NCBI GenBank assembly: GCA_963833985.1
Contig: CAWIAD010000002.1
Span: 992,001 to 1,056,000 of the forward strand
Direction of reading: 5' to 3'
Source: an uncultured Planctomycetaceae bacterium
GTDB lineage: Bacteria > Planctomycetota > Planctomycetia > Isosphaerales > Isosphaeraceae
DNA length: 64,000 bases
A program made the position numbers and the translations under genes. Below the pieces are notes generated by a model that saw only the letters and a program-made list of their open reading frames with translations, did not search any database and was not told where the DNA came from. Positions 19,285 through 33,004 of the stretch are shown here, piece by piece (positions within the stretch are counted from its first letter, which is position 1; each line of letters starts with the position of its first letter).

Positions 19285-20575
19285 GAGTCGTCTGCTCCGG
19301 TCCACAAGGGAACCGGTTCACGAAGAAACAAGATCGAAGGCACAGGGCAGCGTGCCTCACAGGGGTTGGACGTGCATGGCGTTCGACATGAACCCCTATC
19401 AGGTTCCTAGCTCGGCGGCTTGCCACTGTCAAGAACGACCCCACAGGAGGCCTGGCTAAGCAGATCCGTAGAAGTCATTGGACGGGATTCCAGTGCGCCG
19501 TGGAAAGGTGTTGGTCTTCAGTGGGTGTAACTCCCACCCGGCAACTGGGTCGCTCCAGCCGGTAGCTATCGGAGCGGCGGTGGAGGAGACGAAACCGTCG
19601 GAGCCTTCGAGACAGATGTGTCGCTTGGCGATGCAGCGAACCGACAGGCCGTAACGCGAGTGAACGTTGAGCAGGCCTCGAAAAGTCCAATGTGGTCGCC
19701 GACCTTGCTGGAATATGGGGAAGGCCGCCGTCGCTGGGGATGAAAGGGAAACGGTTGGAATAGGCCGCCCCACGAGCGATCAGAACCCAGCGGGCCACCG
19801 GGGTATTGACGACGGCATGTCGGCACACGGAGATCAACACAACACGGGAAACCCCAAGCGGTGAGGGCGCGTGACCCTCAACCGGACGCCCGCGAGGGAC
19901 CGGCCGGGCTGCCTGGGGTGGCGGAGAGGCCCGTAGTACCGTCGACGCCGGGTAACTCCGGTCGAGGGAAGGGGCCTTGGTTCAAGGTCAACGCAACAAG
20001 CGGCAGACAGCCGGGAGATTGGCGTGAGTCTATCACCTCCACTGAAGGTCGGGAAGTTGCAGACGGCGTTGCACACCAAAGCGAAGAACGCGCCCAACTA
20101 TCGGTTCTACGTCCTGTACGACAAGATTTATCGACGTGACGTTCTGGGATTCGCCTACGAACGCTGCCGTGCCAACGGCGGCGCGCCGGGGATCGACGGC
20201 CAGAGTTTCGCCGACATCGAGGCGTCCGGGAAGGAACGATGGCTGGACGAACTGGCGGAACAACTTCGTAAGGAGACGTATCAACCCCAGGCGGTGCGGC
20301 GCGTGTACATCCCCAAAGGGGACGGCAAGCAAAGGCCGCTGGGCATTCCTTGCATCAAGGATCGTGTGGTGCAGATGGCTGCGGTGCTGGTCTTGGAGCC
20401 GATCTTCGAGGCCGACCTGGAGCCGGAACAACACGCCTACCGCCCGGAGCGCAGCGCCCTGGACGCCGTCCGCGAAGTCGAACGGCTGCTCAAGACGGGG
20501 CACACCGAGGTGGTGGACGCGGACTTATCTGGATATTTCGATAGCATACCCCATTCCGAGTTAATGAAATCGGCG

Positions 20576-22372
20576 TCACGGCGCATCAGCGACGGTCGCG
20601 TCCTGCGGCTGATCAAGATGTGGCTGGAAACACCGGTGGAAGAAACCGACGGGAAGGGGCAGCGCCATCGAACGACCCGGAATAAAGACCAGGGGATGGG
20701 TACACCGCAAGGTGCACCGATCACGCCCCCAACAATGTTGCGAACTACGTTGTTGGGGGCCTTTCTCAAAAGGGGACGGACTGACCCGATACACGATGCG
20801 GACCTCCTGCTCGTCGATCTCGACCTTCTTCACCAAGGCCCGAACCACCTCCCGTCGCGTGGCCCAGTCCGGCTCTTGCAACCCTTGCGAGACGCGACGT
20901 GCGAACTCCTCCAACTGACCGATCACCAGTCGCAATTCCGCCTCTTGGGCGGCCTCGCCGATTCGTTGTCGATGCTCCTCCGCCAATCTCGAGAGGCGCG
21001 TCCTTGCCGCCGAGATCCGGGGCTCGAACTCCGATTTGTCGAGCAACCCGTCGCCGTAAGCATCGATTAATCGAGAAATCATCTTTTTCACATTATTTAT
21101 CAATTTGCCGAGATGCTCCACCTCCTGATTCGGCCCGCCCTGGGCACCCTGCAGCCGCCGCTCGTACTCCTCCCGGACCCGCTCCGGCTCGGACAGGAGA
21201 CCTCGTAAGTCCTCCCAGACGGCAGCGTCAAGGATATCGGTGCGGATCTGCTTGTTCCAGCAGAGGCGCTGCCCGCCGAAACGATAGGCGTCAGAGCCCG
21301 TGCAACGGTAGTACGCGTAGCGGACCCTACCCTTGCCCTCGAACGCGGCTCGGCTCGTCGGCTTGCCGTAGCAGCCGTAGCCGCAGCGCTTGCAGACGAC
21401 CAGGCCCTGGAGCAGATATCGGCCACCGCCGGGCCGGTCGCGACGGCGTTGCCGGTTCTCTTCAAGCTGGGCCTGGACAGCCAGGAAGAGGTCTTCGCTC
21501 ACCAGCCCGGGGACTTCAATGAAGATTTGATCTTCCGAGGATGTATCAACCCGTGAGACCGGTCGCCGGGAGTGTTCGGGGCGGCCTCGCTGCGGGCGGA
21601 GGCGTTGAGGTTTGAACTCACCTGAGCGCGTCTTGCCGAAGGCCGCGGTCCCCTTGTAGGCAGGGTTCTTGAGGATCAACCAGACCGTCGCGCGATCCCA
21701 GGCCGATTTCCCGGTCCGCGTCGGGATACTGTCGCGCCGGAGGCGTCGGCACACCTCGCCGATCGAGCACCGTTCCTGACCCACCCATTCGAAGATCTTC
21801 CGCACGACCCGGGACTCTTCAGCGAGGACCTGATAACGCGCCTCGCCACCTCCCTCGTGCTTGCCGATGTAACGGTAGCCGTACGGCGCGCCGCTGAGGA
21901 CGTTGACCGAACCGCGGCGGGCGGCGTGTTGCTTGCCCCTGCGGCAACGCTCCATGATCTTGGCGCGCTCGTATTCCGCGATCATTCCCTGGACCTGAAG
22001 CAGCAGGTCGGCTTCCGGACTGCGGCCGACGGGGTTGCGCAAGAAGACGACCTCGACACCGCACCGGATAAGTTCCTCAAGGATCAAGACCTGATAGGCA
22101 TACTTGCGTGAAAGTCGATCCGGATCGAGCATATAGAGGCGGTCGATGGCTCCAGCGGCGGCTTGGTCCCGAAGTCGCTCGAGTGCCGGTCGGGCCAGGA
22201 TGTAACCGCTGACGCCGTCGTCCACGAAGTGCAGTTCGGGCTCGCATTCCAAGCCATCAGTGGCGATCCGCTGAGTGACCGCCTCGAGCTGGCTGGCGAT
22301 CGTGTCCTCCTTCTCCTGCTGCTCCCCCGAAACCCGGGCGTAGAGCGCCACGCGGAGATTGTCCGTGATCAT
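20576..22372 (-). CDS. Large serine recombinase (resolvase + recombinase + Zn-ribbon/coiled coil)
   Basis: ALYARVS catalytic Ser, DDGVSG, DRLSR, PYGY, LKNPAYKG, and CKRCG...YYRC..C. The last ~48 codons lie outside the element, antisense to the RT. Confidence 0.92.
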   Translation of the reverse strand: MITDNLRVALYARVSGEQQEKEDTIASQLEAVTQRIATDGLECEPELHFVDDGVSGYILARPALERLRDQAAAGAIDRLYMLDPDRLSRKYAYQVLILEELIRCGVEVVFLRNPVGRSPEADLLLQVQGMIAEYERAKIMERCRRGKQHAARRGSVNVLSGAPYGYRYIGKHEGGGEARYQVLAEESRVVRKIFEWVGQERCSIGEVCRRLRRDSIPTRTGKSAWDRATVWLILKNPAYKGTAAFGKTRSGEFKPQRLRPQRGRPEHSRRPVSRVDTSSEDQIFIEVPGLVSEDLFLAVQAQLEENRQRRRDRPGGGRYLLQGLVVCKRCGYGCYGKPTSRAAFEGKGRVRYAYYRCTGSDAYRFGGQRLCWNKQIRTDILDAAVWEDLRGLLSEPERVREEYERRLQGAQGGPNQEVEHLGKLINNVKKMISRLIDAYGDGLLDKSEFEPRISAARTRLSRLAEEHRQRIGEAAQEAELRLVIGQLEEFARRVSQGLQEPDWATRREVVRALVKKVEIDEQEVRIVYRVSPSPFEKGPQQRSSQHCWGRDRCTLRCTHPLVFIPGRSMALPLPVGFFHRCFQPHLDQPQDATVADAP

Positions 22373-22737
22373 GGTTTGTCAAACCCCCCCGACCTTGGAC
22401 TGGATAGTGTGGACCACAGTCGCGTGGTTGCGGCTGGGTCGCGGCCGATCCAGGCGCTGCGAAACGACCGGGATCAAGACCTGATATGCACGCGCGATCA
22501 ATTGCTCCTGAAGCCGAGTGAACTCGAAGTGGCGGGTGACAGGAGGACTGAACGTGGGCCTCCGTGGGGACGTGATCATGTCGACTCCTCCTCTCCGAGA
22601 GCGCGGCCGCCAGCCTGCCTTGGATCGGGATCGAGTCGGGGCTGCCATCCGTGCCCGTACTTCGGTCGAAGCCGCGATCTGGAAATGACAGAGTCAGGAA
22701 TCAGGGACGATTTTGCAACATTGTTGGGGGCGTGATC
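20719..22737 (-). mobile_element. 2.0-kb large-serine-recombinase element with 23-bp perfect inverted ends and GATC core
   Basis: GATCACGCCCCCAACAATGTTGC (20719-20741) is the exact reverse complement of 22715-22737. GATC occurs once in the reconstructed target and at both junctions. Confidence 0.9.
22379..22579 (-). CDS. 66-aa basic accessory protein of the recombinase element
   Basis: GAGGAGG RBS. Stop lies 6 nt before the recombinase ATG. Core FEFTRLQEQLIARAYQVLIP. Confidence 0.6.
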   Translation of the reverse strand: MITSPRRPTFSPPVTRHFEFTRLQEQLIARAYQVLIPVVSQRLDRPRPSRNHATVVHTIQSKVGGV

Positions 22738-25057
22738 TCACCATTGTTGTCAAACATCTACATGCGACGATTTGTGAAGGGATGGAAGACTGGTGGACAC
22801 GAGCGGCGTCTGGTCGCGCGAATCGTCAACTATGCGGACGACTTCGTCATCTGCTGTCGCGGCACGGCCGAAGAGGCCATGACGGTGATGCGGAAGATGA
22901 TGTCCAGGCTGAAGTTAACGGTGAACGAGACCAAGACGCGGCTGTGCCACCTGCCTGAGGAGACGTTCGACTTTCTGGGTTATACCCTCGGCCGGAACTA
23001 CGACCGACGAACGGGCCGATCCTACATAGGGTCACGCCCATCGCGGAAGAAGATCATTCGGCTGTGCAGCGAGATCAGTGCGATGACGACGCGCCAGACC
23101 ACTGGACAGGACGTCGAGATGCAGATTGGTCGGATCAATCGCAAGTTACGCGGTTGGTCCAACTATTTTCGCATCGGAACGGTGAGCCCAGCCTATCGCC
23201 AAGTCAACCACCACGTCCGCTACCGGGTACGTCAGTGGTTGTGTGCGAAGTTCAAGGTGCCGGGTCAGGGGCTCAGACGCTACCCTGACAGATACCTGCA
23301 CCAGGAGTTGCATCTTTACCAGCTGCAACGAACCTAGCCGCGATGGTTTCGTGAGCGAACGTGTGAACTCAACCGATGAGACAAGCCTTGTCCGAAAGCT
23401 GGATGCGGGAAAACCGCCCGTCCAGTTTGATGAGCGGGGTGTGGAAACGAGGCCCAGCCGAGCCATCGACTCGAGCCCACCGCGCCACACCTCGACTCTA
23501 CGTTCGCCTGCCCGGGGCTAAGAGCCAGGCGTGGCCGCCGTCCTCGTGGGGTACGATTCCAGTCGTGCCATTCCTGGTCCATCAACTAGTAGCCGTTCAC
23601 GGGCCTATGGTGACTCCCGTTCAGATCTGAACCAGCAACGGCATCCGTTGGGCAACCTGTCTGCAAGATGCTCATGGCTTTCCCGAAAAGGCATCGGTGT
23701 CGTCGGACCGACGCGCACAATCCCGTGCTCGATGCTTCGGTTGAGTCGACCGAAGCCATTATTCCCAATTGACCCATGTCTCTCTCGATCGCCTTTTTGT
23801 GGCTCTCAAGACCCGCCGCACCTCGGCGGAGGCCGGCGCCCGGCCGGCCGTCGTCCTCGGCTGAGGGGTGACCCGGGCTCTGGCCGCCGAGCTGCTGGCA
23901 GTGCCAGAAGCGGCCATGGTCACGCTGGCGGAGAAGCAACGTATTGCTAAATTGCAAAAGTTATAAATAGCACTGAGTGTTGGCAGATGGAGCGAGCCCG
24001 TCGACGGGGAGCTGCGCCTGGCCGGCAGACTGGCGCAATACGAAACCCGGTGCCGCCCGATGGTCTGCTACGACCCACGAAGCAACCACCGGCGACTCTT
24101 CGAGCAGCCGCGGTGCCCGTGCGCCGAGGGACTCGATGCCGAGGTCCCGACCGCCGAGGCGGGCGGATCGCTTCACCTCGCCGATCATCCGACGGCTGGC
24201 CTGCCGAGGGAACCTGCCCCGGCGTGGGCGCCGCGGGAGCCCGACGGCGCCGGGCCGGGACGCGTACCGCCCGATGGGCCCAGCGAATCGCTTGGGGTCC
24301 CACGGGACAGGGTCAGGGTGCGGCGGTGGCCGGGATCAGTCTGCTTGATGGGTAGGAGGATACCGAGTGCCATCATGAGATCCCGGTCCGGCCGTCGGGG
24401 CCACGGCGATTGAGACCCGCCGCCGCCTTTATTCGCCATTCGGAAGACCATTGGCCCGACCATTCCGGCAGCGGCCTCGCGGCGAAGGACGCATTCCTGT
24501 TTTCGCACTGCCTCTCCCATGACATGAGAGTGCATCGCTGTCCGCTCATTCTCGCGTTCAGCGTCTCGCCGGCGCAGACGTACCACTTCGAGCCGATGTC
24601 TTCCACGACGTAACCGACGTCATGCCGGAGTATGTTGACCTGATCGGCCGCATCGAAGCGATTCGCACCGGGCGAGCGCTCAAGCAGGAGATCCGTTGGG
24701 AATTCCGAACGCTCAGCGGCGGGCCGACACTCCCGTTGACCCAGCACGGCATGATCCGGCTGGCCGAGGTGCTGCGCTGGGGCGATATGGCGGGCTGTCA
24801 GTTCGCGATTGGATTCAAGACCGTATGGGGCCGGCGCCGCGGGCCATAACTCTTTTGACGACGTGAGCCGGCGGGGACTCTGACGATCACCAGGGATTGG
24901 CTCCTGCTGCCGCGCCGGATTCGCTGTGGCCCGCGGCGCTAAGATCCTCGGGTGAATCGAGGCGCCGCCATGGATCGCCCCCGACGAGCCCCCCCAGAGA
25001 GGGATGCGGCATGAGCGCCGGCCGGGCCCACGCCGATCGGTCGAGCCGTCCGGATCC

Positions 25058-32103: not shown

Positions 32104-33004
32104 GTTTGTCAGTTCCGGCCCGTGAACGGGTACATCAACTGGAAGTGACACGATTGGAATCGTGTCCGACGAGAAGCTCGGAGAGGTGACACGATCAGAA
32201 TCGTGTCCTTGCGTCAGGAAAGCTCTGGAAAGGAGGAAGAGACTCGAACTCGGAAACCTTTCGTTGAAACCCTGAAACCCTGCGGGTACGGATCCCGCCT
32301 GGCAAAGCTGGACCAGCAGCCAGAAGCGAGTCTTGCGTGGTGATGGGGCAACCCATCCTGCGAAGCGTGGACAGCCAGGTCAAAGGTCGTGTGATTGAGC
32401 CCCGAAAAATTCTTGACCGCGTGGAGCCTTCGTCGTGGACACAGGCGGGGACCGTGTCAGGCAACTGACTCGTGGTCCACTCAGCCTGGCTGATCCTGCT
32501 GGGGTCGAAGAGCACGGACAATGACCACCAGGGTTTCCAGGGAACCTTACTTAGAGCCCCCGACGTCTCCATCGACATTCCGGACGAGGAGCCCGGAACC
32601 CCAGATCTCTTGGCCTCCGGTGGGCCGCCCACCACCGAGGGGAGCGAACGACGGGAGGAACGACGGTATCGGCTCGTGAAGATATCGAAACGAGCTGAGA
32701 ATGACGGCGGCGAGTCGGAGCGTCCATCGTATCGCCGAAGCAGGGGAACCATCCCGAGGGACCCCGTGGAGAGAAGGGGACGCCATGTCATGACACCGTT
32801 GGAGAGAACCATGGCGGGTGCATCGAAACCCTTAACCGTGCCAACAAAACAACAACGGATCGCGGAGTCGGGTACGAGATGGGGCGCTGATTCACTCAGG
32901 GAGCCGTCCCGTAGCGATTTCATGATATGACGAGCCGTATGCCCGAGAGGGCACGTACGGATCCGTGGGAGCCCCGGGGGAGCAATCCCCTGGGGCCACC
33001 CGGC
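32104..33004 (+). mobile_element. ORF-less (internally deleted) group II intron
   Basis: Domain V GAGCCGTATGCCCGAGAGGGCACGTACGGATC (32932-32963). Domain VI CCCGGGGGAGCAATCCCCTGGGGCCACCCGGC. RT remnant PTKQQRIAE near 32840. The 5' end (GTTTG, 32104) is tentative. Confidence 0.7.

Follow-up and report, generated by a model that had tools for sequence, protein, structure and literature searches.

A 2-kb serine-recombinase element with a preference for the RT4 motif of group II intron reverse transcriptase genes

Results

The window analysed here, a stretch of 64,000 nucleotides from an uncultured Planctomycetaceae bacterium, contains a group II intron at 19493-23501, delimited by Rfam matches and by the boundaries of its other copies in the genome. 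All of its parts lie on the plus strand. The 5′ part (19493-20719) begins with GTGCG, a boundary set by 12 copies with different exons, and holds ribozyme domains D1-D4 (19519-19659; Rfam RF02003, 98.9 bits). The 3′ part (23338-23501), also bounded by comparison of the copies, ends with CTCTAC and holds DV/DVI (23394-23476; Rfam RF00029). The reverse transcriptase (RT)/maturase gene is present as two halves: the N-terminal half (20024-20722; Pfam RVT_1, E 4.5e-17) ends in motif RT4 as GTPQGAP-I, and the C-terminal half (22738-23337; Pfam RVT_1 and GIIM) resumes with SPLLSN and continues through YADD and a maturase domain. With its GTGCG start, both sets of ribozyme domains, and an RT carrying YADD and a maturase domain, the host has the features of a group II intron. 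Cutting out 20723-22737 restores, as an earlier note on this DNA had stated, an uninterrupted RT/maturase of 432 amino acids with GTPQGAPISPLLSNIY and YADD, and the split halves are a 100% protein match to the intact RT encoded by one of the genome's empty intron copies.

The homing site of the host intron is a REP-like palindrome, GGACAcGATTCCa / aTCgTGTC (window 19479-19492 and 23502-23512; 12 intron copies), and 25 unoccupied strict-pattern matches to it are left in the genome. Elsewhere in the window, at 32290-32514, is the 5′ region of another group II intron (Rfam D1-D4-6, 95.5 bits); it has neither a DV/DVI match nor an adjoining RT and looks like a truncated remnant.

The element proper occupies 20722-22734 (2,013 bp) and is flanked by a 2-bp AT crossover core, on the left at 20720-20721 and on the right at 22735-22736. 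Its ends are 26-nt inverted repeats, complementary at 25 of 26 positions, and no inverted repeat within 8 kb ranks higher. The repeat at the recombinase 3′ end (20722-20744, plus strand) codes for the last recombinase residues, and its partner lies at the small-ORF end (22712-22734, minus strand); both are putative P-type half-sites. These terminal repeats are conserved across phyla, with an outer motif offset by 4-5 bp from the target arms. The net insertion of 2,015 bp given in the earlier note holds in its coordinates, while the GATC named there reduces to AT, and the inverted repeats had been overlooked. A 4-bp GATC core is ruled out because off-target copies of the element keep only 2 bp (AT/AT; AA/AT), the AT being the sole bases that recur there; since both off-target copies lack the outer G and C, these belong to the host.

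Coding content within the 2,013 bp is limited to a large serine recombinase and a 66-amino-acid ORF, the two genes already recognized in the earlier note; ORF and Pfam analysis of the element found no mobilisation or cargo genes, and no sigma-70 promoter match was found. The recombinase has 550 element-encoded codons (20723-22372, minus strand) with Resolvase, Recombinase and Zn_ribbon_recom domains (Pfam PF00239, PF07508 and PF13408), which place it among the large serine recombinases, and its structural model shows a long helical hairpin. There is no stop codon for it inside the element, and here the frame reads on to 20576. The 598-amino-acid ORF at 20576-22372, previously assigned wholly to the element, is therefore made up of the 550 element codons followed by codons read from the antisense strand of the RT gene. 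Among 120 database homologues inspected, recombinases mostly carry unrelated host-derived tails, and none carries the tail described next.

Joining the element ends in silico extends the recombinase frame by 53 residues to a TGA. The added tail comes from a 52-codon stretch at the other end of the element (22576-22734, minus strand), which has no start codon of its own, becomes the C-terminal tail of the recombinase on end-joining, and has a TGA overlapping the ATG of the 66-amino-acid ORF. Its frame is stop-free over 33 codons in 86 of 90 distinct homologue ends, compared with 6 and 28 of 90 in the other forward frames and 59, 30 and 42 in the reverse frames. In the part of 31 close ends that lies outside the repeat, codon position 2 varies least (0.036) and position 3 most (0.139), and pN/pS is 0.40 in the tail frame against 1.06 and 1.59; the mirror reverse frame gives 0.49. 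A tail-profile search recovered a natural metagenome protein, P0145, in which recombinase and tail are fused as predicted, and P0129, a fusion of the same kind that is one codon longer. Among 179 proteins with the tail that were examined, these two show the fusion, and each is a single-member cluster; P0145 comes from a 1.5-kb contig, and its exact joint is known from the protein alone. The joined form exists, and a circle, a tandem dimer or a mis-assembly would look alike.

Joined ends were found neither in 217 loci nor in the source genome, the joined-end pattern had no matches in viral contigs, and no circle joint or exact empty site occurred among the 15 of 34 joints listed for the assembled contigs of four runs, where the cover was mostly that of relatives, so that this last result speaks neither for nor against a circle. 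In an AlphaFold2 model of P0145 the tail has pLDDT <50, with almost no alignment depth over it. No sequence likeness was detected between the tail and the 66-amino-acid ORF. Taken together, the reading frames suggest that the circle and the integrated copy would make different forms of the recombinase.

The 66-amino-acid ORF (22379-22579, minus strand) is conserved in 60 aligned homologues, with R22 and Y32 invariant. Pfam gave it no convincing family, only scattered weak matches. Prediction of a complex with the C-terminal 260 residues of the recombinase scored 0.71, compared with 0.00 for the best of three controls; the mark for this score is reached by 116 of 157 solved pairs and by 2 of 215 mismatched pairs, and, integrase complexes with recombination directionality factors (RDFs) having already been solved, the score may partly reflect likeness to those complexes. 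At least 80% of contacts recur between runs, and the partner pLDDT is at least 58. The model places the contacts at the base of the coiled coil, at recombinase residues of about 376-406 and 490-536; passages of PMC11722253 predict that RDFs bind there. On the strength of this model, the protein is a predicted RDF.

The source genome (10.16 Mb) holds 11 full copies of the element at 99.95-100% identity. Nine lie at the RT4 site of copies of the host intron, seven in sense and two, including that of the window, in antisense; the antisense placement pointed out earlier is thus correct for the window and incidental to the element. The other two copies are off-target, outside introns. Genome-wide, two intron copies are empty, a twelfth intron copy is cut at the element by contig ends, and a decayed and diverged intron-element composite lies at C2:4627760. 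The RT4 target site occurs about 13 times in the genome, and the two off-target sites, which rank in the top 0.07% and 1.1% of positions, score far below RT4 sites. The RT gene of a different intron type, intact and with CT as its core, carries no element.

The two empty intron copies may never have carried the element. In one of them (C2:2152285-2154278) the N of SPLLSN, which falls within the predicted outer binding motif, is replaced by S, possibly an escape from the element. One occupied intron copy carries a second insertion in its 3′ part (C2:2147542-2148836), a 411-codon transposase ORF that is presumably ISAs1-like and is present in three copies in the genome.

Sequence differences among the intron copies bear on how they arose. 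A synonymous site 15 nt to the right of GATC is C in all seven sense copies and A in the two antisense and two empty copies, a split that simple arithmetic puts at 1 in 330 if the copies are independent. Across the family, the base at arm position 16 was considered as a determinant of orientation and rejected, as it shows no association (73 right and 61 left junctions). Because the linked C is common to the sense copies and has no effect on orientation elsewhere, the occupied intron allele was probably copied within the genome, though the linked-SNP pattern could also come from an assembly effect. In the seven sense copies, 9 sites vary in the intron part against 2 in the element, which is of equal length (binomial p 0.065), and the SNPs form a mosaic over sense, antisense and empty copies; for this combination, gene conversion fits as well as retrohoming. 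Each intron copy has its own exons, and flank homology is below 320 bp.

Homologous elements were recovered from at least 79 loci in genomes (best 80 of 548 confirmed; 31 of 64 database parts) and from at least 138 loci in metagenomes (end-motif scan; 16 of 64 parts). Elements were scored if the recombinase match was at least 40%, the end score at least 12 and the flank at least 24 nt, with duplicates removed. By peptide motif, 48 of 70 scored genome elements and 56 of 81 scored metagenome elements adjoin the exact RT4 codon, and a Pfam scan of 53 of the remaining junctions added one and three elements with RT flanks, respectively. A group II-type RT is therefore adjoined by 49/70 and 59/81, nearly always at RT4, and by 40 of the 52 closest elements, which bears out the proposal in the earlier note of a family whose favoured insertion point is the RT4 codons of group II RT genes. 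Among the listed genome loci, carriers include Planctomycetota, Chloroflexota, Pseudomonas, Burkholderiales and Acidobacteriota.

The flanking RT halves of these homologues are about 24-83% identical to the source-genome RT. In one genome (G007), copies that are 97% identical to the element of the window sit in RT halves 32-52% identical to the source RT and at one non-RT site; because near-identical copies lie in divergent RTs, the element moves apart from the intron. A single ancestral insertion is ruled out by the same divergence of RT flanks, both family-wide and in G007. Where both RT halves could be assigned (41 loci), orientation is nearly even, 21 antisense and 20 sense. At eight loci the same RT half lies on both sides of the element. 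Two copies on one contig of G007 (C63; L232 and L248) lie 15 kb apart in opposite orientation with the RT halves of two introns swapped, an arrangement that implies an inversion producing chimeric introns.

About 3 in 10 homologous elements sit outside RT genes, some of them in sulfatase, Fic, response-regulator and transposase genes. Such unrelated sites, which according to the earlier note would mark a chance hit by a multi-target recombinase, do exist (2 of the 11 copies in the source genome as well), but a chance hit does not describe an element with 9 of 11 copies at a site that occurs about 13 times. From the distribution of junctions, RT4 targeting appears to be real and not exclusive. 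Distant relatives (about 48-54% identity) lie in transposase genes of IS256 type (L057, L061, L062), IS3 (L032) and IS200 (L034, L084); the three IS256-type insertions have a similar position, two by Pfam and one by motif. These inserters are perhaps sub-clades with other mobile-element targets. Three further loci (L006, L010, L011) share a recurring site outside RT genes, the flanks of which are palindromic and GC-rich.

The DNA of RT4, coding for PQGxx-[I/L/V/A]-SPxLxN, is quasi-palindromic (GGnGTG-AT-CTCnCC). Read outward from the core, its arms are CACnCC and CTCnCC, compared with CACGCC in the element arm. Identity between the inner 6-bp host arm and the element arm is 0.61/0.62 at RT sites, where conservation of the target arm is confounded with that of the RT protein, and 0.50 at non-RT sites, which have no RT protein constraint; shuffling gives about 0.3. 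The outer motif matches best at a 5-bp shift in the right arm (0.54; non-RT 0.31) and a 4-bp shift in the left arm (0.43). In serine integrases, attP and attB arms are offset by 4-5 bp, as described in part of PMC11722253, and the arms of the element and its target appear to have the offset known from phage serine integrases. Left and right cores match in 29 of 41 loci and differ in 12, with 13.3 matches expected by shuffling. Among close relatives the core varies (AT, CT, GT, GC and others), so occasional crossover between unlike cores is needed; such crossover is unusual for serine recombinases in the account given in passages of PMC11722253. Some core mismatches may come from recombination between copies, as in the eight loci with one RT half on both sides and the swapped halves in G007.

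Discussion

These observations are probably best explained by a minimal, multi-copy element that prefers RT4 and is excised by its serine recombinase as a circle, which then integrates. The recombinase, with the 66-amino-acid protein as predicted directionality factor, would excise the element, joining its near-identical inverted arms around the 2-bp core into a symmetric attP. The joint is seen in sequence to complete the recombinase gene with the conserved tail and to couple it to the small ORF; what this does for recombination can be proposed from the gene layout. The circle would then integrate at another RT4 site, the quasi-palindromic, arm-like DNA there serving as attB, and a palindromic core would let it do so either way round. 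Integration would usually take place at a matching core, sometimes across a mismatch, and less often at look-alike sites. Loss of the maturase would be a by-product, with a multi-copy selfish gene offering a cheap and renewable landing site. Since conservative excision alone adds no copies, a rise in copy number needs replication timing or gene conversion.

It is possible, if on balance doubtful, that the copies spread mainly as passengers, the intron-element composite being retrohomed in trans by an intact RT or copied by gene conversion. The C linked to all seven sense copies, a base that does not predict orientation across the family, fits this, as do the intact ribozyme domains and the separate exons of each intron copy with their short flank homology. 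The element nevertheless looks younger than the intron part, the mosaic of SNPs cannot result from clonal, tree-like descent by retrohoming, two copies are found where there is no intron, and the distribution across the family needs independent insertion. Passenger spread could add locally to movement by excision and integration; it cannot replace it.

The RT4 enrichment might instead be a matter of survival at harmless sites more than of targeting, the element being a recombinase transposon of relaxed specificity. The share of elements elsewhere and the low scores of the two off-target sites agree with this, but survival bias would leave insertions spread over the length of RT genes and over other DNA that can be spared, whereas a single codon position is hit in RTs of 24-83% identity, and we consider the explanation improbable. 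A regulated, reversible switch, invertible or excisable, by which the host or the intron toggles its RT, was suggested in the earlier note and seems very unlikely. The inverted ends and the presence of both orientations in one genome might recall such a device, as might the two empty copies and the fact that precise excision would restore the RT frame. Yet the RT is broken in either orientation, so inversion switches nothing; the element also sits in sulfatase, Fic, response-regulator and transposase genes; decayed hosts are common, as with the truncated intron of plasmid pDK1 and the composite at C2:4627760; halves of different introns are exchanged between copies; and no observation links excision with a benefit for intron or host.

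Compared with known systems, the element appears to work like Tn4451-type transposons and phage serine integrases and to lack defining features of each. Myxococcus phage Mx8 and Sulfolobus SSV1 have integrase genes split by their own attP, so that integration changes the C-terminus, as it would in the recombinase here; theirs are tyrosine integrases of viruses that target tRNA genes, whereas the element has a serine recombinase and an RT4 target. Phage integrases such as those of phiC31, SPbeta, TP901-1 and Bxb1 share the three Pfam domains, the 4-5 bp offset between P and B arms and, with their RDFs, a small partner at the coiled-coil base (predicted in our case), and are distantly alike in sequence (best E 4e-8). 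Unlike them, the element has no phage genes, reaches many copies per genome and inserts in both orientations, not at a single oriented site; its end motif had no matches in viral contigs.

Tn4451/Tn4453 (TnpX) and Tn6104 have a large serine recombinase, a circular intermediate, a 2-bp core at both ends and several targets, as set out in parts of PMC3158075. The present element shares the large serine recombinase at one end, the 2-bp core at both junctions and the several targets, but it is 2 kb long without cargo or mobilisation gene, has inverted-repeat ends, varies in core (AT/CT/GT/GC and others) where theirs is fixed, prefers one RT codon and has a recombinase gene that crosses the joint; TnpX matches its recombinase weakly and in the catalytic domain only (E 6e-5). 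Multi-targeting large serine recombinases, in which one recombinase cluster likewise has several target genes, form a clade (Cp36) with DUF4368 in 63%, according to passages of Durrant et al. (PMC10083194). The recombinase of the element has no DUF4368 match in Pfam, and one target dominates. In the passages searched in the main text of PMC10083194, its eight supplements and the preprint, neither reverse transcriptase nor maturase nor group II introns come up. IS607 elements are also IS-sized, with a serine recombinase and crossover at a 2-bp core; as described in part of PMC6188088, they have no terminal inverted repeats, an N-terminal DNA-binding domain and an invariant GG. The present element has terminal inverted repeats and not the IS607 domain layout.

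The element is likely a parasite of another selfish element, apparently undescribed in print: searches of the open literature found no published description. Known pairings, in which introns home into mobile elements, run in the opposite direction. If our reading is true, a cross-phylum knock-out of RT at its most conserved motif would help explain broken group II introns and rearrangements between them, thousands of recombinases come with a readable attB, attP and candidate RDF, the ability of a large serine recombinase to cross unlike cores is put to a natural test, and the joint-encoded tail is a possible new way of setting recombination direction. We advance more tentatively, as something that could well prove otherwise, that these elements are a widespread, unnamed IS-sized class specialised on RT genes and tolerant of mismatches. 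Direction would be set by rewriting of the recombinase, the tailed circle form integrating and the tail-less inserted form acting with a new family of RDFs, and occupied introns would be spread by intact ones, giving a three-tier parasite of REP-like repeat, intron and element.

Two named plasmids, pDK1 and Cupriavidus KK10 p1, carry RT4 insertions. The pDK1 homologue (L218:3203-5171) is frameshifted and occupies a truncated RT4 site, with benA on one side and xylS on the other; pWW53 has the same match. ISPpu2 is a name associated with pWW53, under which no papers were found. These TOL plasmids are well studied, and older papers may have named the homologue.
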